64,000 nt of DNA from positions 1 to 64,000 of IMG/VR virus record IMGVR_UViG_3300026512_000006, one strand, 5' to 3'. This document shows, piece after piece, positions 13,140 through 64,000 of this stretch. This DNA comes from a virus. How positions within the stretch are numbered: position 1 is the first letter of the stretch; each line of letters begins with the position of its first letter. The notes beneath the pieces are model-generated. The model searched no databases. It was not told the DNA's origin and saw only the letters and a list, made by a program, of their open reading frames with translations. The position numbers were made by a program, and so were the translations under genes.

Positions 13140-13141
13140 AG

Positions 13142-16549: not shown

Positions 16550-16563
16550 TATTTATCCTTGTT

Positions 16564-23954: not shown

Positions 23955-23958
23955 AATA

Positions 23959-25083: not shown

Positions 25084-25108
25084 GGAGAAGTTATAAGATT
25101 TTGCAAGG

Positions 25109-25216: not shown

Positions 25217-25217
25217 C

Positions 25218-25352: not shown

Positions 25353-25363
25353 AGTGGTATCCT

Positions 25364-25630
25364 TTATGAAGTTTTACGTTTAGGAGTTGGGTTAACTGCT
25401 TTGCGTATTAATTTAGCTTCAGCTTGCGCTGTTGCCACTCTAGCGTCTCTTTTAGCGTTGTCCACAATGGAATCGCATTGTAAGTCCGCTAACATATTTT
25501 TACTTGGTATTTCAATAGCGTCGAACCCGATGTCTAATAAACTTGCTGTTCTTGTGACAGCGTTGTCTACTACATCTACTAATGTTCCTGCTGTATTGAA
25601 TACTTTACCTAATGCTTGAAATGGTCCCAT
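25364..25630 (-). CDS. first minus-strand (early) gene, hypothetical protein (88 aa)
   Basis: ORF track; CCGTAGGAGG leader 5 nt upstream of the ATG. Confidence 0.65.
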   Translation of the reverse strand: MGPFQALGKVFNTAGTLVDVVDNAVTRTASLLDIGFDAIEIPSKNMLADLQCDSIVDNAKRDARVATAQAEAKLIRKAVNPTPKRKTS

Positions 25631-26445: not shown

Positions 26446-26568
26446 ATGGAAACTACAGAAGTAAGTAACCCAGATAAAGATATGGTAGTATATGTAACTA
26501 AATGTGTAGATAGTAAAATAGTGGCTGTACAGGAAACTACGTTAGAAGAGGTAGGTATACAGCTATGA
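26446..26568 (+). CDS. hypothetical peptide (40 aa)
   Basis: Own translation METTEVSNPDKDMVVYVTKCVDSKIVAVQETTLEEVGIQL; AAGGAG SD; ATGA coupling to the next ORF. Confidence 0.4.
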   Translation: METTEVSNPDKDMVVYVTKCVDSKIVAVQETTLEEVGIQL

Positions 26569-26702
26569 GTAAGAAAACAGTTTATTGTAAGATTTGTAAG
26601 AAAGATGTAGTACCAATTGTTAAGATATTTAATACTAAGGTATGTCCTAAATGCAATATAATTCTTAGTAGTGATAAAGGTATCGACAAGGCAGGAATAT
26701 GA
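26565..26702 (+). CDS. zinc-ribbon peptide (45 aa)
   Basis: Own translation MSKKTVYCKICKKDVVPIVKIFNTKVCPKCNIILSSDKGIDKAGI (CxxC...CxxC); ATGA coupling on both sides. Confidence 0.45.
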   Translation: MSKKTVYCKICKKDVVPIVKIFNTKVCPKCNIILSSDKGIDKAGI

Positions 26703-26995
26703 GTTACATAGGGTACGGCATTAAAACTCCATGTAGTGTATGTGGCAAGTTCGTCAGTATAGGTGAGCCATGTGACTGTAATGCTAAAAAGACTATCAAA
26801 TACAGAGTCTTAGGTCCTTCAGTTAGCGAGACACACAATACAGGTACAAGTGCTGTAAATACTTCAGCTACCTCTATGTGCCGTTTAGAAGACTTGTATA
26901 ATGATCTTGGTACTCTTAAATGGCTTGGTAGTGATGATGGCTGGGATAGAGCTATAGAAGCTGTAAGGGCTGAAATTAAGAAGAGGTTGGAATAA
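26699..26995 (+). CDS. hypothetical Cys-containing protein (98 aa)
   Basis: ORF track; CSVCGKFVSIGEPCDC. Confidence 0.55.
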   Translation: MSYIGYGIKTPCSVCGKFVSIGEPCDCNAKKTIKYRVLGPSVSETHNTGTSAVNTSATSMCRLEDLYNDLGTLKWLGSDDGWDRAIEAVRAEIKKRLE

Positions 26996-27001
26996 GTAAC
27001 A

Positions 27002-47025: not shown

Positions 47026-48411
47026 ATGAGTGATACTATTAATAAAGATGAAGTAGAATTTGATGAAGATGTATTTGAGTCAATGTTACACGGGACGTTC
47101 GAGGCAGAGACTTCAGATACCGACGAGGTAGAGGAAGAAGGTGTTGAAGAAGATGCAGATACTGCGGAAGACTTTGACGAAGAAGACAATGAAGACCAAG
47201 AGGACACAGACCAAGAAGAGGATTCTGAGGATGATGAGGAACTTGATGAGGCTGACGACGGTGAGCTTGATGAAGACTCTGAAGACGAAGATGATGATGA
47301 GGAAGAAGACTCTCTAGTAGAAGATTATGATTCAGATGATGAAGATAGTGATGGCGAAGACGAAGATGATACAGATACTGACGAAGTAGCTGAAGAGTCT
47401 GAGGATGGTGACACTGACGAGGAATCAGAAGACGAAGCAGACACAGAAGAGACTAGCGACGGCGAAGCTCAGGACACAGACGGAGTTGATTATAAGGCCT
47501 TCTATGACGCTGTAGTGAATACAGAATTTGTTGTTAACGGAAGAAAGACTAAAGGCTTTGCAGATCCTCAGAAGATTATACAGTCACAACAGATGGCTGG
47601 TGGTTTCTCTGAGAAAATGGCAGGCTTTAAGCAGTATCGACCATTCATGGCTCCTCTGAAAGAGAGAGGTATGCTTGAAGATCAGACTAAGTTTGACTTA
47701 GCAATGAACCTTATCGATGGAGATAAGGAAGCTATCAAGAAGCACTTGCAGTCATTAGAGATTGATCCGTTAGATTTAGATATGGAGAAGATTGAGTATA
47801 GTGGTAAACCCACTGTAGCTAGTCAAGAGTCTTTAGTTATCGAAGATGTAATGGAGAGAGCTAAGGCTACAGGTATTGAAGATCGCGTTAGACAAGTAGT
47901 TGGCAAAGATTGGGATGCTGAAAGCTTCCAAGAATTTGTTTCTAATGATGCTGTACGTGAAGATTTACTTAACCACATTGAAACCGGAGCATATGATGCT
48001 GTACAGGATAAGATGTTAGAGATGAGTAGACTTGACGTAAACGGTTCGTTTGGTGCTATGAATACTATTTCAAAGTATAGAGCAGCTGTAAGAGAGTTAC
48101 AAGCTGAGCAGCCAGCTGCACAACCAAGTACTCCCGTTGTAGAGCCAAAAGCCACAACTCCTAAGAAGGTTGCTAAGAAGCCTACAGTGAAAGCTGAGAA
48201 GGCTAAAATCGAGCAAGCTAGGAAGGAAGAAGAGTATAAGGCTAAAGCAGCTAAACGTGAAGCTAAGTTAACACAGCAACGTAAGAAAGCTGCTTCAATG
48301 AGTAGAAAGAAAGCTAAGGCTAAGCCTAAGCCTAAATTCGACCCATTAAAGGTAGAAGGTGAAGAGTTAGATAATCTCATGGATTTTCTTATATCAGGCG
48401 GTAGAGGGTAA
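47026..48411 (+). CDS. scaffold-like protein with ~130-aa poly-acidic N-terminal region and Lys-rich C-terminus (461 aa)
   Basis: Composition, and position immediately upstream of the major capsid gene. Confidence 0.45.
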   Translation: MSDTINKDEVEFDEDVFESMLHGTFEAETSDTDEVEEEGVEEDADTAEDFDEEDNEDQEDTDQEEDSEDDEELDEADDGELDEDSEDEDDDEEEDSLVEDYDSDDEDSDGEDEDDTDTDEVAEESEDGDTDEESEDEADTEETSDGEAQDTDGVDYKAFYDAVVNTEFVVNGRKTKGFADPQKIIQSQQMAGGFSEKMAGFKQYRPFMAPLKERGMLEDQTKFDLAMNLIDGDKEAIKKHLQSLEIDPLDLDMEKIEYSGKPTVASQESLVIEDVMERAKATGIEDRVRQVVGKDWDAESFQEFVSNDAVREDLLNHIETGAYDAVQDKMLEMSRLDVNGSFGAMNTISKYRAAVRELQAEQPAAQPSTPVVEPKATTPKKVAKKPTVKAEKAKIEQARKEEEYKAKAAKREAKLTQQRKKAASMSRKKAKAKPKPKFDPLKVEGEELDNLMDFLISGGRG

Positions 48412-48451: not shown

Positions 48452-49780
48452 ATGGCTACAAAATCATTATTTAACACAGGCGGACTTACTTCAACAGATA
48501 TCGATGAGCAGTACAACGACCATTTCTGGTCAAAGGGTGCAATTCGTGAAGCTGCTAAAAAGCGTGTGTTTACACAACTTGGAGATCGTTTAACTCAGCC
48601 TAAGCACTATGGTGACGAAATTGTTAAAGAACGTCAGTTCCCAATTTTACATGAACTTAATAAGCTTGATGGTGGTGTTGATGCTACTACTGCTTCTGTT
48701 GTTCAAGCTGTATTTTATGCTTATAACACTTCAGGTGTTTTAGTTGGTACATTTGAGACTCGTGATTATGCCGATGCTGCTGCTGCAGAAGCTGATGCAG
48801 TTACTGCTGCTGATGGTGGTAAAGTACTTAATGGTACTGGTGCTATCTATGGTGGAGATGCTGACTATTCAGTTGTATCTGGTACTTTTCCTTCGTTGAC
48901 TGAGGAAGGTGGAAACGTTAATGGCGTTAACACTAAGTCTGTTACTGTTAAAGGTAAAGTTAACGAGTTCGGTATGCACATGAAGTTTACTCAGAAATCT
49001 ATTGATATGGATTCTAGAGTTGGTGTTCTTGCACAAAAAACTAAAGCGCTTGGTGAAGCTAAGGGCGATATCTATGAAGCTCAAGTACAGTCAGACTTAA
49101 TTGCTGCTTCTGAGATTAATAGAACTTTCGCTGGTACAGCTGCTTCTTCTTTACTAACTTGTAATAGAGATGCTGTTCTTACTTTCGCTGACTTACGTCT
49201 TATGGAACAAGAACTTAAGCGTTTACTAGTGCCTCGTGATACTAAGATCATCACTGGTTCGACTAAGATTGATACTCGTGTTGTTGGTAAGTCTTATTAT
49301 GCATATGTAGGTCAAGAGCTTACTCCTATGTTAGAAGATATGACACATAATGGTATTAATGTATGGGTTCCAGTTGAAGCTTACGCTGACTCAGGTGTAG
49401 TTGCTGATGGAGAGATCGGTAAGATTGGTCGTTTCCGTTTCATCGAAGTTGACAATATGCAAAAGTACCGTGGTGTCGGTGCTAATGACAGTGGTAATGA
49501 CGATGCTGATGATGTTGCTGGTTACCACTCATCTAATGCAGCTGGCGGTGGTGAAATTTCTTTCGACGTATTCCCAGTATTGTTTGTTGGTTCAGACTCA
49601 TTCGCAACTGTAGGTTTTGAGGGGGATTCTTCTAAGATTAAAACTGCTATGCCTAAAGCTGATGCACATAATGATCCATTTGGTAAAAATGGTTCTATGA
49701 GTATCTCTTGGTATTTCGGTACTTTGATCTATAGAGCTGAGCGTATCCGTCAAGTAGCGTGTACTGCACCAATTAGCTAG
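48452..49780 (+). CDS. major capsid protein (442 aa)
   Basis: Size, strong codon bias and high GC, position after portal and scaffold, and strong hairpins downstream. Confidence 0.6.
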   Translation: MATKSLFNTGGLTSTDIDEQYNDHFWSKGAIREAAKKRVFTQLGDRLTQPKHYGDEIVKERQFPILHELNKLDGGVDATTASVVQAVFYAYNTSGVLVGTFETRDYADAAAAEADAVTAADGGKVLNGTGAIYGGDADYSVVSGTFPSLTEEGGNVNGVNTKSVTVKGKVNEFGMHMKFTQKSIDMDSRVGVLAQKTKALGEAKGDIYEAQVQSDLIAASEINRTFAGTAASSLLTCNRDAVLTFADLRLMEQELKRLLVPRDTKIITGSTKIDTRVVGKSYYAYVGQELTPMLEDMTHNGINVWVPVEAYADSGVVADGEIGKIGRFRFIEVDNMQKYRGVGANDSGNDDADDVAGYHSSNAAGGGEISFDVFPVLFVGSDSFATVGFEGDSSKIKTAMPKADAHNDPFGKNGSMSISWYFGTLIYRAERIRQVACTAPIS

Positions 49781-50517: not shown

Positions 50518-50526
50518 TACTTATAG

Positions 50527-50550
50527 AAGTCTCCTCGGAGGCTTTTATTA
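50527..50550 (+). terminator. intrinsic terminator
   Basis: AAGUCUC-CUCG-GAGGCUU followed by UUAUUAAUUAUU. Confidence 0.5.
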
Positions 50551-50571: not shown

Positions 50572-51042
50572 ATGGCTGATATACTATGGAGTGATATAGT
50601 TGGTGCTGCTACTGTTTCTGATGGTGGGTACGTAGGAGATTTACTTAAACTTGCTAGAGCTCATATAGATGAAGCTATAAGGAATAATGAGCTCACGCAA
50701 GGAGACGCTGGTCAAATTTATACAGCAATGATACCTGCCGCATTTCAGAATGGTATAGGATTTTCTATGCAAGAGGAACTGACAGAGGCTAAGATAGCTA
50801 ATGAAGAAGATAAACTCCTTACAAGCGAACAGCAACGTGCAGTATTGGTCAAGCAGGAAGCATTGTACCAGAGACAAGCAGCAGCATTTGATGATAAGAA
50901 ATATCAAAATATTTTAGATACACAGATGAATGCATGGGGTATCACATTCCAAGATACCGATACAACTTTTATACCTTCACAACTCACACAGTCTGAATTC
51001 GATACTTCAATGGCAGCTGTTAGAGCAGATTACGATGTTTAA
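50572..51042 (+). CDS. hypothetical virion-module protein (156 aa)
   Basis: ORF track. Confidence 0.6.
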   Translation: MADILWSDIVGAATVSDGGYVGDLLKLARAHIDEAIRNNELTQGDAGQIYTAMIPAAFQNGIGFSMQEELTEAKIANEEDKLLTSEQQRAVLVKQEALYQRQAAAFDDKKYQNILDTQMNAWGITFQDTDTTFIPSQLTQSEFDTSMAAVRADYDV

Positions 51043-51283
51043 TAGAGAAGAAGTACTAGGTTTCATTAATGATGTTATTGAGGACAACCACGGTAATGTT
51101 GTTACGGAAGAAACTATAGTTAGAGACAGTGGTATTGATAGCTTTGGCTTTGCAGTACTATTCCTAGAACTTGACGAAGAGTATGAGTGCTTCGATACAG
51201 AGTATGTAGATAAAATGTATAAGACACTTAGTAGTGGTGTAACTGTTAAAGAGCTTATAGATAGAGTAGAGCAATGTTCGTAG
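51035..51283 (+). CDS. acyl/peptidyl carrier protein-like (82 aa)
   Basis: DSGIDSFGFAVLFLELDEEY matches the ACP phosphopantetheine site D-L-G-x-D-S-L-x-x-V-E-L-x-x-x-L-E-E-x-F (Ser36). ATG 51035 overlaps the upstream stop; small and acidic. Confidence 0.65.
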   Translation: MFNREEVLGFINDVIEDNHGNVVTEETIVRDSGIDSFGFAVLFLELDEEYECFDTEYVDKMYKTLSSGVTVKELIDRVEQCS

Positions 51284-52134
51284 AAAGTTATACGTATCAT
51301 ACAGCAGACGTTAAAAGCGAACTGTTTATGCGTATAGATGGTATTGCTAGAAATAAATACATGACTTCAGAGTACCTTAAAAAGTTTCCAGATTTACTAG
51401 GTGCGGATACTGTAGGGAGTGTAGCTTTTCTATATGCTGGAGGTCCAGCTAGTCACCATAGTGATATAAGAGATATAAATGATTTATCAGATAGTGGTAG
51501 AATAGTTATTAAAGGGCAATTAGGATTTAATGCTTTTAACTTGGCTAAAAAGTTTGGGGATGTGCAGCATGTTAGTATAAATGCTAATACTTGTGCTAGT
51601 AGTATGTTCAGTCTTCACGAGGCTAAGGCACTACTTAAGGTATATGACAACGTAATAATATATGCTGAGGAACGAGTAGATAATGCTCTATTGCTGCTAT
51701 TTAACCAACTAGGAGTAGATTTAGTATGTGGAGATGCTGTAGCTATGATGCATTTAACTAGTGCTAAGACTAGTAATACTATAGCTGAAATAACTGATAC
51801 AGCATGGGGATGGTACCCTGATGACTCCCCTATGGGAGTTAGTAAAGAAGGGTACTTAAGCGTACTTAGTAAGATAGATTGCAGTGATGTGACTATTGTC
51901 AAACCTCATGGTACTGGGACACCTAGAAATGATGCAGAAGAAGATAGCGCTATTGCTGAGGTATTTCCTAATGTTGAGGTAGTAAAATTTAAACCTGCTA
52001 TAGGGCATACACAAGGAGCTAGTGCTTTAGTGGAACTATGCATGCTGTTGGATAAGTATGAGGATAGCTTTACAGGTGTTTGTATGGCGTCAGGACTAGG
52101 AGCTATGTATGGTTGTTGTAAAGTCATTAAATGA
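51274..52134 (+). CDS. compact beta-ketoacyl synthase (KAS I/II / PKS-KS type, 286 aa)
   Basis: Cys-His-His triad in the correct order and spacing: NANTCASS (C107), VKPHGTGTPRNDAEE (H212), KPAIGHTQGAS (H245). Overlaps the ACP gene end by 10 nt. Confidence 0.65.
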   Translation: MFVESYTYHTADVKSELFMRIDGIARNKYMTSEYLKKFPDLLGADTVGSVAFLYAGGPASHHSDIRDINDLSDSGRIVIKGQLGFNAFNLAKKFGDVQHVSINANTCASSMFSLHEAKALLKVYDNVIIYAEERVDNALLLLFNQLGVDLVCGDAVAMMHLTSAKTSNTIAEITDTAWGWYPDDSPMGVSKEGYLSVLSKIDCSDVTIVKPHGTGTPRNDAEEDSAIAEVFPNVEVVKFKPAIGHTQGASALVELCMLLDKYEDSFTGVCMASGLGAMYGCCKVIK

Positions 52135-52573
52135 GTATGCAATAGCATTCGCAGAAAATGTTGACACTGAAGATACGTATAAGATACTGCAGGAAGCTGT
52201 AGTAGGAAAAGAGGGTACAGCTAATTCGCGAATGCGAAAGGCCAGAATATTACGTGCAAGGATAGTAAAAGCTATAGCCGAGAATAAGCTTATATGCCTC
52301 ATGTACCTGAGTAAGCCTATCGCTGCATGTATTGTAGATGATAGAAAAGGTAATATGCTTATTAATATAAATGTATTGAAAGCATACAGGTTATTGCCTA
52401 AAACTGGATTGCTTATGCACTACATTGTAAATAATGTATTTAAAGGTGAGGATGTATACTTCATGGACACCACCGGACAATTTGCTAGTGTAGGCGAATT
52501 AGTTGATGACAGTATATACAAAGTTAAACCAACTGTTGCTGCCACGTTACAAAAACTATATGGAGAAATATAA
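52109..52573 (+). CDS. hypothetical protein coupled to the ketosynthase gene (154 aa)
   Basis: ORF track; 26-nt overlap with the KS gene and ATG overlap with the next gene. No motif recognised. Confidence 0.5.
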   Translation: MVVVKSLNEYAIAFAENVDTEDTYKILQEAVVGKEGTANSRMRKARILRARIVKAIAENKLICLMYLSKPIAACIVDDRKGNMLININVLKAYRLLPKTGLLMHYIVNNVFKGEDVYFMDTTGQFASVGELVDDSIYKVKPTVAATLQKLYGEI

Positions 52574-54864
52574 TGGGAGGGCATACACTAGTAGGTAAAA
52601 TATTTAATGCTATACTAGACCCTATAGATGCCTTATTAGACAGCATATTCGGTAGTACAGAAACTATGGTCGACGTCCAAATAACTAATTTACTTACTCC
52701 TGGGGAAGCAGATAACAGGGCTAGAAGACAAAGTATTAGGAACTCTCATGGAGAACTATCCGTTTACGGATCTCAATATAGAGCATTTCAAAGAAACTAC
52801 AGACAGAAGTACAGTGCTAAATTTTTAACTAATCTTGGATACCTACCGTCAGATACTGCAACTACAAGGGTTCTAGATCCTGTAGCAGTTAAAGACTATG
52901 TAGCTACATATGACGACGCTATTGTCGGCGTATCCCAAACATTTATTAAGTATATGTCCGAGGAAGAAGCTGCATGGGACTGGATGGAAGATAATATAGG
53001 ATGGAGTAATGCTAATAATATAGCTATTAATGATGATAAGACATGGATAGATCTAGTAGTTACTAATGATTCTACAGATATTACTATGGATTTTACTAGG
53101 GAGCCTGAAGAAACTATATATGATAATTTAACTACTAATTATTCATATGATGCAGAAGAACGTACTGTCGAACTGTTTACTGGTCCAAATACTTATGATG
53201 TAACAGGCACGACAGATAGTGGTACTACAAATATAAGAGTGACTATTGATGATACTGAATTTTATAATGAAGATATAGACGAACTTACAGATTATGTTAT
53301 TACTACACCGTTAGAAGAGCCAGGCAGTTACACTATAAAAGTATATGAAACTGCTGACGACACAGAATCTCTTACATCAGAGACTACAATTGATATCATT
53401 GCTACTGCAGAACTGTATGATGTACCAGCATTGGATACTACAGATCTAGACGGTTTCTACAGGACTATAGTAGTGTTGCAAAGTGACGATACAACTTCAG
53501 TTAATATAGATACTTCTGTAGAGACAGCGTCTTGGGATATACCATCCTCTACTATAGAAAATGAAAAAATGATTGTAATGTATGATAGAGGAGAAACCGA
53601 ATGGTATTACTACTCGGAAGATTTGAGTACTGTTCCTGATTCTTTGTATACATTAGCTGCTGTAGATATAACCGCAATTATTCCTCTCAAAGAAGATAAC
53701 CATATTTTTAATGAGAATAGAAAAATGGAACGAATGTTAGATAAATTAAATATAACAAGAGCTTCACTGTTGCCTACATTACATAACGGGGATATAGACT
53801 CGGCCTACTTAATGACTGGGATTTATCCTCACACACAAAGTCAGGCAGGGATCAAAGCAATATTTAATATATTTGATTTAATGCTTGAAGGTAGTGGAGA
53901 TGTTAGTATAGCTATGAGTAAGCTGAGTATGGTATACGCATTTACTATAGGTAAGTCTACCGTAAATGCTAAAGTGTTAAAAACGGGTACTTATAGTAAC
54001 TCTACATCTAATGGTGTTAAGACTCTGATTTATCAAGCAACTTCTACACAGTATAAAAAAATAGTTATTAGCAACTACTCCCATACTTACACAATTAGTG
54101 GGCAAACTATTAGTGCAACTTTCAGTGATGCTAAAGATATCTCTAGAATGGTCTTACCGCTTACTGTATTAAACGGACTAGTGTATAAAGATTTTGTAGC
54201 AGTGTATGAGGATAGCTTAAGCTTGTTAGCATACTCTGTTGAGGTAGTAGAGATATCTTGGGAAGAGAGCGCTGCTTTTTCTGTTATATTAAAGATAGCG
54301 GCAGTAGTGGTAGCAGTATGGTCATTGGGTACGGCAATACAAGTATCTTATGCTTTATGGACTGCAGGAGCATACCTATCATTGGCTATATATGTAGCAA
54401 CTACGATAGCAATAGGTATTGTAGTAAGTATAGGCGTTACTTTAGCTATGGATTTTCTTGTCAATACTCTTGGGCTTGATCCTTCTATAGCTGCACTAGT
54501 TGCAATGGCAGCTGCCTACGCAGGTGCTAAGTTTGCAAATATATCCTTTGGAAAGGAACAGTGGCTACAATTAGCTAATACTATTGTTGAAGAGGGTTCT
54601 GATATAACTAGTGAGCAAACACTAGCAGTACTTAGGGAAAGTGAAGAGTACTCCAAGGAGATGCAAGAAAAGAATGAAAGTATAATGGAGCTACTGCAAG
54701 CATTTGATACTGGTGTAGTAGGAATGTTTAATATGAGTCTTACTAAGGAGTACTCTCCCTATCAAATAGCTGAAGTTTATGTTGATAGTAAAGTAAATAT
54801 TACCGATTTAGAGATGTTGCTAGATGTCAATGGGGTTGTTCGCAGTAAATTAGAATTAGAGTAA
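52573..54864 (+). CDS. large virion protein with C-terminal cluster of transmembrane helices (763 aa)
   Basis: ORF track; ~110 aa of hydrophobic helices (AAFSVILKIAAVVVAVW...AMAAAYAGAKFA). Confidence 0.6.
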   Translation: MGGHTLVGKIFNAILDPIDALLDSIFGSTETMVDVQITNLLTPGEADNRARRQSIRNSHGELSVYGSQYRAFQRNYRQKYSAKFLTNLGYLPSDTATTRVLDPVAVKDYVATYDDAIVGVSQTFIKYMSEEEAAWDWMEDNIGWSNANNIAINDDKTWIDLVVTNDSTDITMDFTREPEETIYDNLTTNYSYDAEERTVELFTGPNTYDVTGTTDSGTTNIRVTIDDTEFYNEDIDELTDYVITTPLEEPGSYTIKVYETADDTESLTSETTIDIIATAELYDVPALDTTDLDGFYRTIVVLQSDDTTSVNIDTSVETASWDIPSSTIENEKMIVMYDRGETEWYYYSEDLSTVPDSLYTLAAVDITAIIPLKEDNHIFNENRKMERMLDKLNITRASLLPTLHNGDIDSAYLMTGIYPHTQSQAGIKAIFNIFDLMLEGSGDVSIAMSKLSMVYAFTIGKSTVNAKVLKTGTYSNSTSNGVKTLIYQATSTQYKKIVISNYSHTYTISGQTISATFSDAKDISRMVLPLTVLNGLVYKDFVAVYEDSLSLLAYSVEVVEISWEESAAFSVILKIAAVVVAVWSLGTAIQVSYALWTAGAYLSLAIYVATTIAIGIVVSIGVTLAMDFLVNTLGLDPSIAALVAMAAAYAGAKFANISFGKEQWLQLANTIVEEGSDITSEQTLAVLRESEEYSKEMQEKNESIMELLQAFDTGVVGMFNMSLTKEYSPYQIAEVYVDSKVNITDLEMLLDVNGVVRSKLELE

Positions 54865-55100: not shown

Positions 55101-55541
55101 ATGGCAGAAACAAGTAATTTATATATGGGGTACACTCCTGAGCAATGGCAGGCTTTTGGAGCTAGTGGCGGTACTGTGAATGATGGTTACCAGATAACTG
55201 GAGGATTAGGCTCTGATATTGGCAAATCATTACAAGGTCAGGGAGGGTTAACTAATGGAGAATTCTCGCTAGGTAATACAGATCCTGGTGGGTTTTCATT
55301 AAAAAGTGTTGGAGGAATAAAAGGGCTCACAGGTATAGGTAAGCTAGGCATAGGTCTAGGGCAGTTGTACTTAGGCGGACAACAACTGGGACTAGCTAAA
55401 GATCAGTTTGCCTATAATAAGATGGCAAAGGATAGAGAATATGCTGCTAATGTTGCTGAGTATAATAACTCATTAGCTAGAACTGCTGCAGTGGATAAGT
55501 TTTACGGAACTCAGTCTGCTGGAACTCCGATAAAGGCTTAA
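55101..55541 (+). CDS. Gly-rich virion-module protein (146 aa)
   Basis: ORF track; AAGGAAG SD. Confidence 0.55.
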   Translation: MAETSNLYMGYTPEQWQAFGASGGTVNDGYQITGGLGSDIGKSLQGQGGLTNGEFSLGNTDPGGFSLKSVGGIKGLTGIGKLGIGLGQLYLGGQQLGLAKDQFAYNKMAKDREYAANVAEYNNSLARTAAVDKFYGTQSAGTPIKA

Positions 55542-55544
55542 TAA

Positions 55545-57362
55545 ATGTCATTAAAAAGTAGAGCTGCTTTTAGTGGCAGTGGAGTTGTAGCACCTAATTT
55601 AGCACCTGCTATGCAAGCATTGAATAACGTTGGCAATATGCTAACTGATTACGAAAAGTCTCAAGCGTTAGCTACACAGCAAGCTATAGCGAATAAAAGA
55701 GCTGATGCTCTGTTAGGCATTCAGCAAGCACAAGAAGGTAGACAACAGTCAGCTTTTGACGAAACTCAAGCTAAGAAACAAGCTATAGCTGCTGCTGCTG
55801 GTTTGCAGACTAATGTGCTTAGTGGGCAACCAGGACAGCAACGCTTTGAAGAAGCTATGACTAGCGCAGTACCTAAGTTCGAGACACCTAAACAGCAGAA
55901 GTTTGATTACTACAAGCAATCAGATGCGATAGCTCAGTTGCCTGCAGAGCAAAGGCAGGCTGCTACAGCTAAGTTACAAGCGGACTACGCTGCTCTTGGG
56001 GATAAAGACTTGATAACTGCTAGAGATAAGTACTTTGAAGATATGGGTACTAAGTACGCTCACGTAAGTGAGGCTAGTAATTTTGATGGGCTAAAAGTCA
56101 ATAAGGCTGATGCTGGTTATAAGAATAGAGTTTACAATGAATTAGTTAAGTCAGGTACAATGACACCGGCAGAGGCAATGCAGCAAGCTACTATACAAGC
56201 ATCGCTGTATGCACCTGCCCCACTTACTAAGGCTCAACAAAAAGATAAAGAAGCTGCTATGAAGAGAGCTGATGAGCAATTGAAGATGGACTTAGATATT
56301 GCTAAGACTGCTACTGAGAAGATGAAAGTCACTGGTGGTAAAAGCTCTACAGGTAGTAAGTCAAGATTTGGTAAATATACAATAGAGAAAGCTGCTGATA
56401 CTTTGAAGCTAGAGGACGGATGGACAGAAGACACAAGACAAAATGCTATAGACGCGGCTGAAAAACTTAGAGTTAAACACGGGCTACCTGAAGGGTTAGT
56501 TGCTGACGCGTTATTTCAAGCTGCAGAAAAAAAAGGCTGGATTAATAAAGACAAGAGTGTAGATAAAGATATTCTTGAAACATACGTATTAAATCTACAG
56601 AAGATTAAAGAGAAAATGGGGGATAACTTTAGCACAAAACTGTATAGTAAGTACGGCCCAGATTACTTAACTAAGGCCGAAGGAGCACTAGAGAAGCATG
56701 CTAAGCAGCTTCAAGCTATCACGGCAGGGTACTCACAAGCAGATGCAGGGGATACTGGACTAGCTACGTTAGAGTCACAATATGGTAGATTAGGACTACC
56801 AGTTAAGGATAATCTTAAGAGCACTAAGGAACCTATAAAAAAGACTAAAGTACCTGTAGAAGATATACCTGAAAAAGACGTCACCGTACCTCCTGTGGTT
56901 ACTCAGGACATATTTAATAAGAAACAAAGCAAAAATGCTATTGATGCTTATAAGAGAAAGAGTTCTTATGATAACATTTCAGAAAGTACAGCTGCCGATG
57001 GATCTCCAATCTATACAGCCACGAGTCACGGTAGGAAAGTAGACGTGACAGACGATGTTATAGAAGAAATGCGGACTAATGAGTATAGAAATGCTGCTAA
57101 GGCTTTTGCTACTAAAAAAGGTGCAAATGGTTTAAAGAATACAACTGAAGATATGCTACAAGAAATATTAGACGAAGAGTACGGCAGACATCCTGCAGGT
57201 ACTAAAGGTTCATACGCTATTGAGAAAGAGCTAGAGCGTAGAGAACTTTTAAAAAGAAAATGGCTTAAAGATAATAATAAACTTATACCAACATCTAGTG
57301 CTGTTAGAGATATTAGCCCTGCAGAGCAGGAAACTCTTAGAAAATATCTGCTAAATAACTAA
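55545..57362 (+). CDS. large virion/internal protein (605 aa)
   Basis: ORF track; Ala/Gln/Lys-rich helical sequence. Confidence 0.6.
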   Translation: MSLKSRAAFSGSGVVAPNLAPAMQALNNVGNMLTDYEKSQALATQQAIANKRADALLGIQQAQEGRQQSAFDETQAKKQAIAAAAGLQTNVLSGQPGQQRFEEAMTSAVPKFETPKQQKFDYYKQSDAIAQLPAEQRQAATAKLQADYAALGDKDLITARDKYFEDMGTKYAHVSEASNFDGLKVNKADAGYKNRVYNELVKSGTMTPAEAMQQATIQASLYAPAPLTKAQQKDKEAAMKRADEQLKMDLDIAKTATEKMKVTGGKSSTGSKSRFGKYTIEKAADTLKLEDGWTEDTRQNAIDAAEKLRVKHGLPEGLVADALFQAAEKKGWINKDKSVDKDILETYVLNLQKIKEKMGDNFSTKLYSKYGPDYLTKAEGALEKHAKQLQAITAGYSQADAGDTGLATLESQYGRLGLPVKDNLKSTKEPIKKTKVPVEDIPEKDVTVPPVVTQDIFNKKQSKNAIDAYKRKSSYDNISESTAADGSPIYTATSHGRKVDVTDDVIEEMRTNEYRNAAKAFATKKGANGLKNTTEDMLQEILDEEYGRHPAGTKGSYAIEKELERRELLKRKWLKDNNKLIPTSSAVRDISPAEQETLRKYLLNN

Positions 57363-57409: not shown

Positions 57410-60400
57410 ATGCCAAGAACTGATGCATTCGGTAACATAATACCAGAACCGACTATCAATATCTCCGATAGTTGGTCGTTCCTCAATACCCCTACAATAC
57501 AAGATACAAAACAAGCAAGATTACAGCAACGTACAGCAGAAAAGCAAGCTAAATTATCAATGGCTAAAGATACTTTGCTTGGTATGAATGATGCAGATAC
57601 AGTAGTTACCAGTAACTTAGGAACAGTACGTACTAGTACTCCAGCTGCAGGTTATAACTATGATGCTATCGAGTCTGACCATATTACTAGGGTACTTGGC
57701 CGTGATGGTAAGTACGTAGAAGCTCCAACAGCAGACCCTTTAGAAGAGATACAAGCTAGTAGGTATAAGCAACGAGTTCAGCCAGATGCTGTAGCTAGAG
57801 TGCTGGGCAAGCCTGTAAATGAGCTTACTAAGCAAGATTACATAGATGTTGCTAATCAACAACAAATACAAGCTTTAGCTGATATGGCTAATGGCAACAA
57901 TGATTGGAAAGCCCCATTGATTCATGGTGTAACTAGCACTAATCTTACAGGTAAGTATGTGGATGAGTTTGGTAATAAAGTTGATGCACCTTTAAATGTC
58001 CCAATTACTAGTGCAGCCTTTGGTAAAGGTGCGTACGGGCGTACAGTAGCTTCTCTCGGAAGTGCGGATGGAACTAACACTACAGCGTTGGAAGTTAATG
58101 ATCCAACACAAAATGCTTATACTAATATACCTAGTACTAAATCTAGTGGTCAAATGACTCCCGAGGAATATGCTAAGGCAGTTACAGCCGGTATAAAAGA
58201 TACCCCAAGGAGTGACTCAAGTTGGTATTCTGATCTTATAAGTGGGATTGTTAAAGGTTTTACGTCTGGAGAGATGGAAACTGCTAATCTAGTAGAGGAC
58301 TTAGGCAGAGCGGCAGTAGGGGCTAAAGGTGAGGGGCTGCTTACTAATGAGGCTATAGATAAAGCAAGTACAGAGATAGCTAACAAGTTCGGATATGATG
58401 AAGCTGCTGTGAGAGCTGATATGATAAAACAGAAAAAGCTAGCCAATGAAGCATTTAAAGACACATATAATCCTGTAGAATGGGATTATGATAAGATACT
58501 AGATTTAGTAGGGCATTCGTTTAGCTCATTTTCAATGACAGGTAATTCAGTAGGTGCTATGTTAGCAGCTGTAGCCGGCGGAGGCGGAGTAAAACTAGTT
58601 GCTAAAGGTCTCAGTAAAGCAGTACTAAAGAAGACTACACAAGAAGCTATTAAAAAATCTGCAGAGAGTAGAGCAATAATAGAGGCAGCAAAAGCTAAGT
58701 TAAAAGATAAAGCAGTTAGCGGTGCCGATAAGTTTGCGCTTAAAAAAGAGATAGTTAAAAACAGAAAGAATTTAGTAGCTACTGAAGCTGCTTTTAAAGC
58801 TGCTAAAGAAATGGCTACACCAGTAGCATATGGTATGGCAATTACTGAACAAGATTTAGCAGAGTTAAGAAAGAATGGGGAAGAGATTACTCCTCAAAGA
58901 ATAATATCGGCTACTATTGCTAATACACTGGCTATAGCAGTTCCAGAACTAGCTGTGGCTAAGTTCCAATTAGGGTTTGCAGTTGATGCGACCGGTAAAG
59001 TATTAAAGGGCGATACACTTAAGAAGAGAGCAGCTGACGCGTTTAAAGGAGCAGTAACTGCCTATGGCACTAGTGTAGGGTTTGAAGTGCCTCAGGAAAT
59101 GTTACAGCAGGGAGTGCAAGCACTAAATCAGAAATGGGGTACAAAAGAGTATGAAGGAAAGTCGCCATTAGATATAGTAAAAGAAGAGGCCAGTAATGTG
59201 CTTAGTGCTGGTGTAGCAGCTGTAGGGATGAGTTCACATATGATGGCTCCCGGTGTTGCTATTAAAACAGCTAAGATACCATTTGGTGCTAAATTGAATG
59301 ATAAGTTTAAACCAAAAGATAAAGATACCCAAGTAGATATAGCTGAAGAGACTATAAAAGCTAACCCTAGTGTGAGTCCAGAAGCTATTAAGAAAGTATC
59401 CGAAAAGATGGTTAAGGTTGAAGGAGATTCGCTAGCAACACCTACTGACGCTGACTTGAAGTCTACTCCGATAGCTCCTACTGAGGTTAATAAGGAGGCA
59501 CATGCAGCTGTGGCTAAGCAATTGCATGATAATGAAGGTGGTGTAGCAACTGTTGAAGAAATAACTCCTGTAAGTAAAGAGAAAGAAGACGCATTGAATG
59601 GCTCACTAAAGCAATTTGACAGTGTATATGAAGATGCATTAGGACGCCTTACTAAACCTGTTGCAGATATTACTAAAGCTAATACTATACGAGAGGAAGC
59701 TGGACTACCAATTGATGAAGCTAAGAATAAGCAGTATACAGAAGCTGTTGCTAGAGGGTCTAAGGATTTCTTAGGCTATATCATAAAAGCTAAAGATGAG
59801 GCTATTAAGCAAGGTGCTGGGCCTAATCAGATAGCAGCTATGGATGCTAAGATAGAGAGACTTGTACCTTTAGCTACAGCGTCTAATGCTAAAGAGCTTC
59901 ACGCTATATTAACAGATGATAAGGTTACTAATTCAGAGAAAGTAATGAATATACTTGGTAGTTCAGCTGCGTCACTAGAGGATGTAGAGAGTGCTATTAA
60001 GCTTGAGGGCATATCTGAGAATGAGAAGAAACTACTTAAGTACAAAGCTAACGCATTAAAGAACTATAAGGAAGTTGCTGGTGAGAAGTTACTAGGAGGT
60101 GGTAGTAAACCTGGAGCGTTACAGTGGGCTGCAATGTTAGTAGAGGGTATAAAAGATAAGAAAGCTTTAGAGAATCTAAATGACTTTATTGGAGGGCAGT
60201 ACGATAAGGTAAAAGCTTTTCAGAATGAAGTATCTAGATGGGATAGAGAGAACAAGATGCCTTGGACTATTGACGGGCATAAAGATGCAAGTAAGTATTC
60301 TGAAGACCCTAAGGCTATGAAAGATACTAAAAGACTATATAGGAGTGAGTATCTTAAAGACCATAAGTCAGCAGATGATGCAATAGTCAGATACGGTAAT

Positions 60401-61402
60401 ACGACTATAAGAGGTATCGCTAGTATAGACGCATTGCTAGATACCCTTAAAACTGAACATAAGAGTATGCAAGATTTAAGAGAGTTAGCTGATAGTTTTG
60501 GTAAGCCAGAAGATGGGTTCCCTGCGGGCAAGACTGAGAAGATTACCGAGGCAGATACTACTGAAAAACCTAGTGATACTAATACACAAGTAGACAGTAT
60601 TAAAGAGGAAGTTGTTACCGAGACTGCTAAGCCTAAAGAGGTGTCACCAGAAGCACAGAAACCTACGGAGAAGGCAAAGAAAGAAGTTAAAGGTAAAAGT
60701 ACTAAGGAAGAGCCTAAGAGAGCTCCTAGAGTAGCTAAGGAGGCTGTAGCACCTACTAATGGTGATGGAGTTATACTAGAGAATCTTAAACCTTCTGACC
60801 AGAAATGGATTAAGGCTTTTAGAAATAAAATAGCTATATATGCTAATATTACTGAAGCAAGTAAACGAAAGTTTATAAAATTAAAGGAAGAGTCTAAGAA
60901 GCCTTATAAGAAGAAGATTAATAGACGAGCAGAGGAAGTGAAAGCAGCATCTGAAATACCTATTGGAGGATCTGAGGATGCAAAAAATACAGCTGTAAAA
61001 ACTGCAATGAAAAAAGATATTACTAAATCAAAGTATGAAAAATATACTAAAGAAGATATAGCTGAAGAGTCTGAAATATTTGAAAGAGAGTATGCTAGAG
61101 TTGTAAAGAAATTAGAAGCTTTTACTACAGAAAAAGAGCTTGCTGGTACTATTAAAGTTTTTAAAGATATAGATGGGCTAGTTGGCGAAGATCTATTAGC
61201 AGCATTAGTTGAAGAGCTAGTCAAGTTAGAAAGTAATGAAGTTGTAGTTAATCCTGTAATAGAAAAGACTACATCCGTTAAAATTGATACTATGAAAGCT
61301 TTAACTAACAAAAGAGAAGTTATAATAAATAAATTAAAAACAGCACCAGCAGGTATTCGTAAGATAATTATGGATAACCTTAGTAAGTGTAGTGGAGTAT
61401 AG
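57410..61402 (+). CDS. giant virion/internal (ejection-type) protein (1330 aa)
   Basis: ORF track; no TGA/TAG/TAA over 4 kb; lies immediately upstream of the virion RNAP gene. Confidence 0.65.
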   Translation: MPRTDAFGNIIPEPTINISDSWSFLNTPTIQDTKQARLQQRTAEKQAKLSMAKDTLLGMNDADTVVTSNLGTVRTSTPAAGYNYDAIESDHITRVLGRDGKYVEAPTADPLEEIQASRYKQRVQPDAVARVLGKPVNELTKQDYIDVANQQQIQALADMANGNNDWKAPLIHGVTSTNLTGKYVDEFGNKVDAPLNVPITSAAFGKGAYGRTVASLGSADGTNTTALEVNDPTQNAYTNIPSTKSSGQMTPEEYAKAVTAGIKDTPRSDSSWYSDLISGIVKGFTSGEMETANLVEDLGRAAVGAKGEGLLTNEAIDKASTEIANKFGYDEAAVRADMIKQKKLANEAFKDTYNPVEWDYDKILDLVGHSFSSFSMTGNSVGAMLAAVAGGGGVKLVAKGLSKAVLKKTTQEAIKKSAESRAIIEAAKAKLKDKAVSGADKFALKKEIVKNRKNLVATEAAFKAAKEMATPVAYGMAITEQDLAELRKNGEEITPQRIISATIANTLAIAVPELAVAKFQLGFAVDATGKVLKGDTLKKRAADAFKGAVTAYGTSVGFEVPQEMLQQGVQALNQKWGTKEYEGKSPLDIVKEEASNVLSAGVAAVGMSSHMMAPGVAIKTAKIPFGAKLNDKFKPKDKDTQVDIAEETIKANPSVSPEAIKKVSEKMVKVEGDSLATPTDADLKSTPIAPTEVNKEAHAAVAKQLHDNEGGVATVEEITPVSKEKEDALNGSLKQFDSVYEDALGRLTKPVADITKANTIREEAGLPIDEAKNKQYTEAVARGSKDFLGYIIKAKDEAIKQGAGPNQIAAMDAKIERLVPLATASNAKELHAILTDDKVTNSEKVMNILGSSAASLEDVESAIKLEGISENEKKLLKYKANALKNYKEVAGEKLLGGGSKPGALQWAAMLVEGIKDKKALENLNDFIGGQYDKVKAFQNEVSRWDRENKMPWTIDGHKDASKYSEDPKAMKDTKRLYRSEYLKDHKSADDAIVRYGNTTIRGIASIDALLDTLKTEHKSMQDLRELADSFGKPEDGFPAGKTEKITEADTTEKPSDTNTQVDSIKEEVVTETAKPKEVSPEAQKPTEKAKKEVKGKSTKEEPKRAPRVAKEAVAPTNGDGVILENLKPSDQKWIKAFRNKIAIYANITEASKRKFIKLKEESKKPYKKKINRRAEEVKAASEIPIGGSEDAKNTAVKTAMKKDITKSKYEKYTKEDIAEESEIFEREYARVVKKLEAFTTEKELAGTIKVFKDIDGLVGEDLLAALVEELVKLESNEVVVNPVIEKTTSVKIDTMKALTNKREVIINKLKTAPAGIRKIIMDNLSKCSGV

Positions 61403-61403: not shown

Positions 61404-64000
61404 ATGGCATGTAGTATAAAGAGTATTATAAGAGAACTAGTAAGTAAGCCTACTATTAGTGAAGATAAATACCCAGAGGTGTTCAAAGACCTTAAAGAGC
61501 TTCAAGCAGTACAGCAAGAGATGGCTATACTAGCTAAAGCTATGCCTCCTAGGGAGTTGGTCACTTATAGGATAGAGAGTGATAATAGATACCAAGAGCT
61601 GCTGCAAGAGCGTGAAGATATTAATAACGCATCTAAAGAGAAGCTTGATAAGATATTCGAGAATCTAAAAGCTAAAGGCGGTAAGAAGTTTGCAGCTAAG
61701 CTGGAACTAAATACGAAGAAGCTACTAGGTTGGATTAATAACTACAAAACTGAACTTAAAGAACTTGAAGATGAATTAGATCCAGAACTATATTCTGCTA
61801 AAGAGATTACTAATACAAAGAAAGCTATTAAACGAATAACTAGTAAGATAACTGAGTATGAAGTGTTTATAGCTAAAGGTAAGAGAGACGCTACGTCAGC
61901 AAAGTCTAGAGACACTAAGGCGTTCAATACTAAAGAGAAAGAGGCATTGAAAAAAGCTGAAGCTTTAGAAGACGTTAATAGACGCATTAGAGAGCTTAAG
62001 CAAACTTACAGTGCAGGATTTTTATCTATAAATAATACTCCATCTAAGTTAAAAGCTAGGAAGGATAAGTTACTAAATTACATGAGAGCTAAACCTGTAT
62101 ACAACAACTTAGTAAGATTTAAAGAGGATGTGAATTCATTTACAAAGTTACTAGGAAAGGTTGAAGTAACTGATGAACATATGCCAGAGGCTAAAGAAGT
62201 TATGGAATTTCTAGAGAAAGCTATTAACTATACTACAGCAGATAAGATGTATCAAGGTATAGACTTAAGAGATTACAGCATCCCAGACGGAGCTGAAGCT
62301 TATCAGAATATATCTAGACTAATGTTTGTGGAAAATGCTGACAGGAAACTAATACTAAGACCTGAGGCAGTTACAGCTTTAGCTGCAGCTTCTACAGATT
62401 GGTTAGCTAATTCGGTTGATAGATGGAATGAAAGAACTGACGACGATGTAAACAGATTCTTTGGCATTCCTGCAGGAGCACAAGTTACAGCAGAGCAGCG
62501 TAAAAGGCTAGTTGACGTAGACACACTTACTAGTACTGCTGCTAATGCTATAGGGCAAGCTGTAGTTAAGTCTCTTGGTATTAAACCGGATTTAGATAAG
62601 TCTGACGTGTCAGAGATATTAGTTGCTAAGCTAAGCACAGAGCTAGGACTGATAGGGCTAGAGTCGATGAAAAGTGGTAAGCTACTAGACATGAATACTA
62701 AAAATGACACAGAAGTGTATGGTGAAGCTGGTAAAGGAAACAAGATAGGTATTGCTACCTTGACAAGTATTGACAAACTTAAAGCTAATCAAAGAACTAA
62801 GGTATTTGGTTCTAAAGTAAGTTTAGGTTTAGCTACTAAAGCTATTACAAAAATACTAGCTGCTGAAAGTAGCAGTAAAGGCCCTAGGTTTAGCAAAACT
62901 AGAGGAGATAAAGAAGTAATAAATCAGTCAGCTCAAGGTAAATACTTTACTACAGCACCAAAAACTCAAGAAGCTCTTAATAAGCACGAGAATGTTGAAT
63001 GGAATTGGAATGATGATTTCATGACAGATTTTAATAGTATAGTAGCTGACGAAAAAGAAAAGCAGAGACTTAGAGTATTTCTAGGATGGCAAGACCCTGA
63101 GAAAGTACATAGTACTAACAGGGAGGGCGTCAACGGCAAGAATTTAGCTATAGAAGCTAACATAGATCACATGATGACTCTAGAGGCTGACATGAAGAGT
63201 ACTGGTAAGACTAAGATGTTTTTCAATTACTTCTTTGGGAAGAATGGTAGATTTTATATAGACTCTAATACTTTTAACCCACAAGGTACAAAACTACATA
63301 GATTTGCTATTAATACTAAGCCTGAGGTAATAGAGACACAAGAAGATAAAGACATGATGTTATTATCTTTAGGTATGGCATTTGGTCTTGACATAGATAA
63401 GATGACTAAAGATAGCTCTATCAAAGAATGGGATAATATTAAAAGTCAAATAATTGAAATGGTTAAAGGCCATGAGAGCACATTGGATATAATGGATTTA
63501 CTGTACAGTAAAGATGTTAAAGACTCTAAAGGTAAAGGTGTCACACCTCACGATCCAGAGCATGCTTTAGCTGGGATAGCCGAGCTTAGAAGATACATAG
63601 AGTATATTGAGGCTAACAATGGGGATAGTAAGGGCTTTGAGGCTAAGCTAGTGCTTGAGGTAGATGCAGTAACTTCAGGATATATACTAAAGACATTACA
63701 GATGCCACTAATTGACAATCCAGAGTACCACTTAGAAGGTGGTGGAGTATTTGTTGGAGAGATGGTAGATGGCAAACCAGCATTCAAGTACAGCTCATTT
63801 GGTGAGCAAGCAGAAGATAAAGGTACTTTAGATGCATATCAGAAGCCTGCTAAAGAGATGGGTGAACGTATGCCTAAAATAGTTAAGAAGTATAAAGGCT
63901 CTGAAGCTATAGGAAGAGCTGTAGAGCTAGCACTAGGTAGTGACCTGGGATCAGCTGAAAATATAGCAGAGATATCTAGAAAGTTTATGAAGTCTCCGTT
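61404..64000 (+). CDS. N4-like virion-encapsidated RNA polymerase (vRNAP), 5' part; continues beyond the window
   Basis: The frame is open from ATG 61404 to the window end (865 codons). FFGKNGRFYIDSNTFNPQGTKLHR ~ T7 DWRGRVYAVSMFNPQGNDMTKG (T/DxxGR). LVLEVDAVTSGYILKTLQM ~ motif A LPLAFDGSCSGIQHFSAM. Minus-strand ORFs listed here are low-complexity shadows. Confidence 0.8.
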   Translation, partial: MACSIKSIIRELVSKPTISEDKYPEVFKDLKELQAVQQEMAILAKAMPPRELVTYRIESDNRYQELLQEREDINNASKEKLDKIFENLKAKGGKKFAAKLELNTKKLLGWINNYKTELKELEDELDPELYSAKEITNTKKAIKRITSKITEYEVFIAKGKRDATSAKSRDTKAFNTKEKEALKKAEALEDVNRRIRELKQTYSAGFLSINNTPSKLKARKDKLLNYMRAKPVYNNLVRFKEDVNSFTKLLGKVEVTDEHMPEAKEVMEFLEKAINYTTADKMYQGIDLRDYSIPDGAEAYQNISRLMFVENADRKLILRPEAVTALAAASTDWLANSVDRWNERTDDDVNRFFGIPAGAQVTAEQRKRLVDVDTLTSTAANAIGQAVVKSLGIKPDLDKSDVSEILVAKLSTELGLIGLESMKSGKLLDMNTKNDTEVYGEAGKGNKIGIATLTSIDKLKANQRTKVFGSKVSLGLATKAITKILAAESSSKGPRFSKTRGDKEVINQSAQGKYFTTAPKTQEALNKHENVEWNWNDDFMTDFNSIVADEKEKQRLRVFLGWQDPEKVHSTNREGVNGKNLAIEANIDHMMTLEADMKSTGKTKMFFNYFFGKNGRFYIDSNTFNPQGTKLHRFAINTKPEVIETQEDKDMMLLSLGMAFGLDIDKMTKDSSIKEWDNIKSQIIEMVKGHESTLDIMDLLYSKDVKDSKGKGVTPHDPEHALAGIAELRRYIEYIEANNGDSKGFEAKLVLEVDAVTSGYILKTLQMPLIDNPEYHLEGGGVFVGEMVDGKPAFKYSSFGEQAEDKGTLDAYQKPAKEMGERMPKIVKKYKGSEAIGRAVELALGSDLGSAENIAEISRKFMKSP

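Follow-up and report, generated by a model that had tools for sequence, protein, structure and literature searches.

The stretch of DNA analysed here, 64,000 nucleotides of viral sequence (positions 1 to 64,000 of IMG/VR record IMGVR_UViG_3300026512_000006, hereafter the window), contains a plus-strand operon in which a cassette of three small genes lies directly upstream of the gene for a tail-plug-like protein. The first gene of the cassette encodes a putative acyl carrier protein of 82 amino acids (ACP, 82 aa; 51035-51283), the second a predicted minimal, elongating-type beta-ketoacyl synthase of 286 aa (51274-52134), and the third (open reading frame 3, ORF3; 52109-52573) a candidate GNAT-fold acyltransferase of 154 aa. 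The cassette is preceded by the gene for a 156-aa virion structural protein (50572-51042), whose stop codon overlaps the start of the ACP gene, and is followed by the gene for the 763-aa plug-like protein (52573-54864); start and stop codons overlap at each junction throughout this run (50572-54864). A terminator-like hairpin (50523-50548, plus strand) is positioned upstream of the operon, beyond which no other terminator-like site was detected on that strand up to 55600. The open reading frames (ORFs; 82, 286, 154 and 763 aa, all on the plus strand), their coupling, and their location between the major capsid gene (48452-49780) and the virion RNA polymerase (vRNAP) gene (~61404) all agree with an original prediction made from the nucleotide sequence, which had read the first two products as an ACP and a ketosynthase.

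Pfam identifies the C-terminal ketosynthase domain (PF02801) at residues 199-257 of the 286-aa protein (E = 3.2e-11, 43.7 bits against a cut-off of 20.8); the N-terminal domain (PF00109) was not detected by Pfam, and NCBIfam ketosynthase matches are limited to residues 199-259 (39 bits against cut-offs of at least 407). A database search returned 148 homologues, the full-length examples being nearly all of 264-301 aa, and in an alignment of 64 sequences (35-72% identity to the window protein) the residues Cys107, His212, His245, Lys240, Thr216, Asn219 and Glu223 are invariant. The Cys-His-His spacing that had first drawn attention to this protein is borne out, with Cys107 in NTCASS, His212 in HGTGT (105 residues later) and His245 in GHTQG (a further 33). 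A model generated with AF2 from the 64-sequence alignment (pLDDT 95.4, pTM 0.93) was used to search the PDB with Foldseek, and the top 50 matches were all elongating ketosynthases (FabB, FabF, type I and type II polyketide synthases (PKSs), and fatty acid synthases; E ~4e-12), with a query TM of 0.65-0.80, a target TM of ~0.5, and an identity to solved FabB, FabF and PKS ketosynthases of ~15%. Profile-to-PDB alignment with 7f28_B sets NTCASS on TACSSS, HGTGT..N..E on HGTAT..ND..E and K...GH..G on K...GH..G. In the predicted model, the fold is that of a complete thiolase core without ~120 residues of the normal enzyme. We regard it as almost certain that the 286-aa protein is a real minimal ketosynthase, one that is probably catalytically active to judge by its conserved residues, and that belongs to a new minimal subfamily rather than being an orthologue of FabB or FabF. 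The viral structure library holds only two ketosynthase-like proteins, both auto-annotated and from uncultured phages.

The 82-aa protein is acidic (isoelectric point (pI) 4.05, with 20 Asp and Glu residues against 6 Lys and Arg) and carries a phosphopantetheine-type motif, DSGIDSFG, features that the original prediction had likewise described; the predicted attachment site is Ser36. A word-indexed protein search gave 6 homologues, and the ACP family was instead built from the genes flanking ketosynthase homologues, nearly every one of which is preceded by a gene of 73-98 aa. Among 28 such positional homologues, Asp35-Ser36 are the sole invariant columns (the next residue is Phe or Leu), and the rest of the sequence drifts to 20-50% identity across the family. 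The family profile matches 117 PDB sequences, nearly all of them ACPs, with NodF the best (E = 2.3e-6); in this alignment, DSF of the phage ACP is set on DSL, and its Ser on the phosphopantetheine Ser. Pfam PP-binding (PF00550) is matched by 6 of the 28 family members (E <= 0.1). Alone, the window ACP yields no PF00550 match at E <= 1, no PHROG match, and a sub-threshold match to TIGR00517 (E = 0.003, 17 bits against a cut-off of 70). The profile check put forward with the original prediction therefore holds for the ketosynthase, which exceeds the PF02801 cut-off, and holds for the ACP by way of its family profile, the single window sequence falling below every curated cut-off. Both assignments are upheld by the combination of profile searches, family conservation and (for the ketosynthase) structure prediction; for the 82-aa protein, the sequence family makes identity as an ACP very likely.

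One could argue for remnants with a structural or chaperone-like part to play, in which a helical ACP-like protein and a scaffold of thiolase fold aid folding or assembly of the plug without catalysis; the ketosynthase is truncated, its N-terminal domain escapes Pfam, its gene can be lost (see below), and the ORF3 family has no invariant residue. Set against this is the strict invariance, in 64 sequences of 35-72% identity, of Cys107, His212, His245, Lys240 and the HGTGT..N..E motif, together with that of the ACP Asp-Ser pair while its surroundings diverge, which is the pattern of maintained catalysis and prosthetic-group attachment. We accordingly view non-catalytic remnants as a very remote prospect.

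ORF3, a basic protein (pI 9.0) with a motif-A-like stretch (INVLKAYRLLPKTGLLMHYIVN), had been left as a protein of unknown function in the original prediction; family profiles now allow its assignment as a GNAT-fold acyltransferase, which we consider likely. Four homologues were recovered by the word-indexed search and 28 close-subfamily relatives by an exhaustive hidden Markov model search. The close-subfamily profile (A6) has the GNAT 3bln as its best PDB match (E = 0.005); once a second subgroup is added (A7), the profile matches 11 PDB entries, again led by 3bln (E = 7.5e-5), with an alignment that spans the motif A region (beta4-alpha3, ...INILeeYRrk.g..LL.yiln). We take all 11 to be members of the GNAT superfamily, in the case of the named entries by their names. 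Pfam Acetyltransf_1 (PF00583) is matched by 3 of 30 ORF3 relatives (best 1.7e-4), and hhalign comparison linked the divergent ORF3 subgroups, with 97.7% for A-D (also the probability that joined the added second subgroup), 99.4% for B-C and 67.6% for A-B. Foldseek searches with a low-confidence model of ORF3 returned GNATs for all of the top 50 matches (E ~1e-2, probability up to 0.99, TM ~0.45-0.55), including N-terminal acetyltransferases and SbzI, a GNAT that is carrier-protein-dependent (PMC11685415). Both the window ACP and ORF3 are assignable only because family profiles were used, given that single-sequence searches of Pfam, NCBIfam and PHROGs produced nothing above threshold.

Three other treatments of ORF3 were discarded. 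A broad profile of 36 very divergent sequences (A4) retrieved no GNAT from the PDB or Pfam, its best matches (ficin and a lipase) arising by chance; identification as an AcpS-type phosphopantetheinyl transferase, or as a hot-dog dehydratase or thioesterase, had no motif, profile or fold match in its favour.

The 763-aa protein that follows the cassette matches PHROG 2220 (E = 6e-26), and its last 270 residues are colinear with residues 577-884 of N4 gp53 (BLASTP E = 1e-4), hydrophobic segment included. The C-terminal hydrophobic block noticed in the original prediction is indeed present (~residues 564-650) and matches the "hydrophobic knot" region of gp53. By these sequence relationships we identify the 763-aa protein as a homologue of the N4 gp53 tail plug and not as an internal protein of the head. 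Cryo-EM of N4 has revealed gp54 to be the tail tube, gp52 and gp51 to make up an envelope-spanning channel, and the N-terminal (29-56) and C-terminal (670-716) segments of gp53 to form the hydrophobic knot that corks the tube (PMC13434306). The 156-aa protein upstream of the cassette matches PHROG 2050 ("virion structural protein", E = 1.8e-9), sits at the syntenic position of gp54, and has weak BLASTP similarity to the gp54 C-terminus (E = 0.064). Further plus-strand genes within 55101-57362 encode a 146-aa protein in the position of gp52, the outer-membrane pore (PHROGs 18869 and 2646, and N4 synteny), and a 605-aa protein in the position of gp51, the periplasmic tunnel (by N4 synteny alone). 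With the N4 gene order being gp56-55-54-53-52-51-50, the cassette is placed between the gp54-like tube gene and the gp53-like plug gene, inside a tail tube/plug/ejectosome operon.

More than 60 metagenomic viral loci, representing four or more phage lineages, contain the cassette. With the ketosynthase as query, 51 loci were located in IMG/VR, nearly all ordered as ~80-aa ACP, ketosynthase, ~130-180-aa GNAT and large protein. A second scan with the plug protein, for which a narrower alignment was used (an alignment of all plugs being too divergent), gave 24 loci that are partly on the same contigs as the 51; the full cassette is present in 15 of these and ACP plus GNAT without ketosynthase in 5, the others comprising one with GNAT only (cut upstream), one with ACP and ketosynthase in which a GNAT was not detected, and two with nothing. 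The near-constant pair is thus ACP and GNAT, and the ketosynthase is dispensable in some phages. Motifs that are invariant across 64 homologues, and a gene order that recurs in dozens of independent viral contigs, argue that the arrangement is not due to chance. Outside N4-like phages, the cassette was found in a P22-like layout (MW202545, ahead of large proteins and an SLT-domain protein), on a contig with a different capsid family (Phage_capsid_3), and on a contig (L062) that also has a diversity-generating retroelement; the latter element (88-1754 of L062) consists of a bAvd accessory protein and a reverse transcriptase, a few kb upstream of the cassette.

The arrangement is not a standard feature of N4-like phages, in line with the original prediction: it is absent from N4 and the six other cultured schitoviruses sampled (in which the gp54-like gene is directly followed by the gp53-like gene), and any part of it occurs in only 3 of 50,697 GenBank phage records. 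Two cultured Alteromonas phages, PT11-V19 and R22Y, have an ACP directly before an ORF3-type GNAT and a plug gene, without a ketosynthase; the R22Y cassette ACP is 39% identical to that of the window (E = 4e-6). In cellular genomes, the ketosynthase was matched once in 185,579 species genomes. This sole match (10001-10903 of contig L060, from a Sulfurospirillum sp. metagenome-assembled genome) is a lone ketosynthase gene that follows a terminator-like hairpin and lies behind a gene for a 498-aa coiled-coil-like protein, with no adjacent ACP or GNAT.

Phage R22Y brings in a different interpretation, in that its ACP gp30 has been read as the product of an auxiliary metabolic gene for host fatty-acid metabolism (PMC11705849). 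Judged by position (no coordinates are given in the paper), gp30 would seem to be the R22Y cassette ACP of the present analysis; that work makes no mention of the neighbouring GNAT or of the tail-operon site. ACP genes are known in other phages, and an extension of the R22Y interpretation would make the whole cassette a set of auxiliary metabolic genes that raise or redirect host fatty-acid synthesis during infection. We judge this to be highly unlikely: the ketosynthase is only ~15% identical to solved FabB, FabF and PKS enzymes, is 120 residues shorter, and is almost without cellular relatives; the pair nearly always retained is ACP and GNAT, the latter having no role in fatty-acid synthesis; and the site is a late tail operon and not a metabolic module. 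The published host-metabolism annotation of the R22Y ACP is not supported by the genomic context found here.

We examined the N-terminus of the protein encoded immediately after the GNAT as a candidate acyl acceptor. Of 31 distinct N-termini, 19 have Gly and 10 have Ser at position 2 (29 in all), against a background of 10% Gly and 16% Ser at position 2 in 513 ORFs of the same loci. Over 40 distinct cases, 38 begin with Met-Gly or Met-Ser. The initiator Met would be removed from all of these Gly/Ser N-termini, in keeping with Met aminopeptidase specificity. In the window, the 763-aa plug starts MGGHTLVGKIF, making Gly2 the proposed acceptor. In the non-N4 loci, the protein after the GNAT starts MG in nine of nine cases (MGG or MGK) and continues as an amphipathic acidic/hydrophobic stretch; these nine proteins (264-639 aa) fall into five groups without full-length similarity to each other or to gp53-like proteins. 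Two of the nine N-termini contain no Lys in their first 45 residues, such that the alpha-amine is the only amine there. A conserved N-terminal Gly marks the plug N-terminus as important.

The plug proteins of cassette-less N4-like phages, most of which start MGLFSSK, invite two remarks. This start is similar to the G-x-x-x-S/T-K consensus for N-myristoylation in eukaryotes. The annotated plug start of Roseovarius phage RPP1 is 18 codons downstream of the conserved MGLFSSKK start.

Bringing these elements together, we tentatively propose, at a little under even confidence, that an ACP-carried acyl chain is moved by the GNAT to the N-terminus of the tail plug, where it would aid sealing or insertion. 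In this scheme, Ser36 of the phage ACP would be modified by a host phosphopantetheinyl transferase to yield the holo-ACP, and host malonyl-CoA:ACP transacylase would load malonate onto this carrier. Cys107 of the ketosynthase would accept an acyl chain drawn from the host pool, and the enzyme would condense this chain with malonyl-ACP, giving a 3-oxoacyl chain on the private carrier; in phages without a ketosynthase, host enzymes would acylate the phage ACP directly. The GNAT, using acyl-ACP as donor, would then N-acylate the alpha-amine of plug Gly2, bared by Met removal. The lipidated amphipathic plug N-terminus, in company with the C-terminal hydrophobic block, could seal the tail tube or enter the host outer membrane at the start of ejection. 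With a GNAT as transfer enzyme, the earlier idea of an acylated virion or ejection protein gains weight, short of proof. A wider version of the proposal, which we put forward about as tentatively, is that several tailed-phage lineages encode a protein-lipidation machinery (private ACP, optional 286-aa mini-ketosynthase and GNAT) that attaches a fatty acyl chain to the Gly or Ser at the N-terminus of the tail plug, or of the protein ejected first, a bacterial-virus counterpart of myristoylated entry proteins; the MGLFSSK start of cassette-less plugs may mark the same site.

A number of observations weigh against the proposed lipidation of the plug. The choice of acceptor comes from gene order and N-terminal sequence, and a start of the form MG[LFIV]F... 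(mostly MGLFSSK) is shared by gp53 of N4 and by its homologues in six other schitoviruses without the cassette, at an overall identity of only 22-47%. Gly2 is therefore a trait of the family and not evidence specific to the cassette (a use of the Met-Gly start that we had entertained and dropped once these cassette-less controls were seen), and the Met-Gly start may be conserved for another reason. At the level of chemistry, a lone ketosynthase gives a 3-oxoacyl product, an unusual anchor unless host reductases act on the phage ACP, and the ~120 residues of canonical ketosynthase that are absent bear on the substrate pocket and dimer interface. A Pfam scan of 20 other ORFs of the window, from its left arm, revealed neither a phosphopantetheinyl transferase nor a malonyl transferase (FabD), and the scheme consequently needs host enzymes that accept a very divergent ACP. 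The window GNAT assignment derives from family profiles and a model of pLDDT 56 (built on a 4-sequence alignment, with an order of elements that fits GNAT); ORF3 alone has no PHROG match and no Pfam or NCBIfam match above threshold, and its family is without any invariant residue. A relationship of ORF3 to the GNAT-like protein of a bacterial cluster, described next, was also rejected, since neither BLASTP nor hhalign shows similarity.

This bacterial cluster is the closest cellular context of the ketosynthase. A homologue (P0076, 37% identical) is encoded on a 265-kb bacterial metagenome contig, L004 (cluster at 6034-16858), between a 79-aa ACP and a 299-aa GNAT-like protein (weak Acetyltransf_1 match). 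The cluster additionally encodes three paralogous NHLP-type precursors that end their leaders in ...ELEEVAGG (a GG leader end) ahead of short cores beginning with Lys, an outer-membrane efflux protein, a membrane-fusion protein and two ABC exporters, of which one has a C39 peptidase domain. Its apparent architecture is that of an acylated-RiPP (a peptide made by the ribosome and modified after translation) system, i.e. a lipidated-RiPP gene cluster. GNAT acylation of peptides is established for goadvionins, in which the acyl donor is ACP-bound, and for selidamides, whose pathway GNATs acylate Lys or Orn side chains (PMC8784127); in lipoavitides, a ketosynthase III pathway and an acyltransferase modify the peptide N-terminus (10.1101/2023.10.25.564083).

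The selidamide precedent (PMC8784127) is relevant to whether the same ACP, ketosynthase and GNAT chemistry might serve some other acceptor. This could be a different protein of the virion or of ejection, the side chain of a Lys, or an amine of the host envelope (in a phospholipid, in lipid A or in a precursor of peptidoglycan) modified during assembly or lysis. The Lys at the start of the bacterial NHLP cores, the presence of Lys9 in the window plug, and the occurrence of the conserved gp53 N-terminal Gly without a cassette are all compatible with such an arrangement. We nevertheless find it unlikely, as the gene-order link is tight and specific to the downstream gene, in at least five protein groups without full-length similarity; some downstream N-termini have no Lys within 45 residues, and no feature of the cassette suggests an envelope-modifying enzyme.

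A related consideration is that the acceptors of GNATs cannot be read from sequence, and the end product might be a small molecule, whether an N-acyl amino acid, a lipid or a signal of the 3-oxo-acyl-homoserine-lactone type, that diffuses and manipulates host or neighbouring cells or is packaged in the tail; a small packaged lipid had been offered as an alternative in the original prediction. Acyl-homoserine lactone (AHL) synthases and N-acyl amino acid synthases do take their acyl groups from acyl-ACP, and 3-oxo-AHLs are made with 3-oxoacyl-ACP, the direct product of a ketosynthase, as donor. We rate this as decidedly unlikely: the cassette always lies within a late tail/ejection operon, translationally coupled to the plug gene and not among early or metabolic genes; the ORF3 profile matches no AHL synthase or N-acyl amino acid synthase in the PDB, its matches there presumably being ordinary N-acetyltransferase-type GNATs (the named entries by their names); and the closest cellular context is a peptide (RiPP) cluster.

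The surroundings of the operon are those of a divergent, uncultured N4-like phage. The major capsid protein (48452-49780, plus strand) matches PHROG 1357 (E = 5e-78) and is ~32% identical to N4-type capsids. A plus-strand gene of 193 aa separates it from the hairpin, and directly upstream of the capsid gene is that of a 461-aa protein (47026-48411, plus strand) whose first ~150 residues are almost all Asp/Glu, followed by a Lys-rich tail; this is probably a scaffolding-type protein. The vRNAP gene starts near 61404 and runs off the window (61404-64000, plus strand); its PF21867 (vRNAP_dom_2) match is that of the gene after the 1330-aa ORF on an identical contig, L002. The 1330-aa protein itself (57410-61402, plus strand) is placed between the gp51-like and vRNAP genes, where N4 has no gene. 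In the left arm, the family of T7-type single-subunit RNA polymerases (PF00940) is matched in part by each of two separate minus-strand ORFs (19073-19822 and 20315-21019), which fits the split RNA polymerase II of schitoviruses, and this split polymerase identifies the phage as a distant schitovirus. An HNH endonuclease is encoded at 14435-14872. The RNA-repair/tRNA-type genes of the early arm (2472-4066 and 18343-18810, minus strand) comprise those for a poly(A) polymerase/CCA-adding head domain (E = 3e-26), for an RlaP nucleotidyltransferase (E = 4e-18) and for a protein with a HAD_SAK_2 domain (E = 4e-8). Between ~24000 and 27000 the AT skew changes sign and coding moves from the minus to the plus strand, at the boundary of the divergent early and late arms; no ORF of at least 100 aa is present from ~23400 to 27000. 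The identical stretch is present in public metagenome assemblies (contigs of 80 kb, up to 102 kb), and searches of GenBank phages by megablast and tblastn gave no DNA-level relative of the region and no match for the 763-aa protein.

Searches of the full-text literature recovered no report of a phage tail module that includes a ketosynthase, an ACP and a GNAT, and none of acylation of an ejection or plug protein in a phage, the R22Y ACP being the only mention. The chemistry that we envisage is precedented in RiPP pathways; its biological setting is unprecedented, and the ketosynthase subfamily is new. If correct, our proposal would describe a phage-encoded system, the first of its kind, that lipidates a virion protein covalently, and would add fatty-acylation of a tail-gating plug to the recently resolved N4 ejection pathway (gp53 plug, gp52 pore, gp51 tunnel and vRNAP). 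Irrespective of function, the ACP/GNAT pair could serve as a compact tool for lipidating proteins at a specific site, and a 286-aa ketosynthase that is ~120 residues shorter than any solved match yet retains a complete catalytic set should interest enzymologists and engineers.

The phage cassette may be compared with several known systems. It shares a general plan with the goadvionin GNATs, selidamide KspN/PhaN, and the lipoavitide ketosynthase III and LpvE, whereby a dedicated carrier and/or ketosynthase feeds an acyl donor to a GNAT-type acyltransferase acting on a ribosomal polypeptide, often at its N-terminus, to give a membrane-targeting product. In contrast to lipidated-RiPP clusters, the window has no leader-peptide precursor, leader protease, C39 exporter, reductase or dehydratase; its presumed acceptor is a 763-aa virion protein, and its ketosynthase is of the 286-aa minimal form. 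By analogy, then, the cassette would work like a lipidated-RiPP system without being a member of that class. The ketosynthase has the thiolase fold, Cys-His-His triad and Lys five residues before the second His in common with FabB, FabF and type II PKS ketosynthases (closest structure 7f28_B), but is 286 aa long where these are ~410. Auxiliary metabolic fatty-acid genes differ from the cassette, which has no close similarity to host fab/acp and is not sited among metabolic or early genes.

Two further parallels concern the carrier and the acceptor, respectively. In the rhizobial NodF/NodE and AcpXL systems, a special acyl chain is made by host fatty-acid enzymes together with a private ACP and the elongating ketosynthase dedicated to it, and is passed on by an acyltransferase. 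Among solved structures, the phage ACP profile matches NodF best, a likeness that covers ACP similarity only; unlike the phage cassette, these systems are cellular, use ketosynthases of ~400 aa, and acylate lipo-oligosaccharide or lipid A. In picornaviruses, the virion protein VP4 leaves the particle at entry and helps to breach the membrane, its N-terminal Gly having received a fatty acyl group from an enzyme of GNAT fold; the eukaryotic enzyme is cellular and uses myristoyl-CoA as donor, and the resemblance to the phage plug would be one of proposed function, with no homology claimed.

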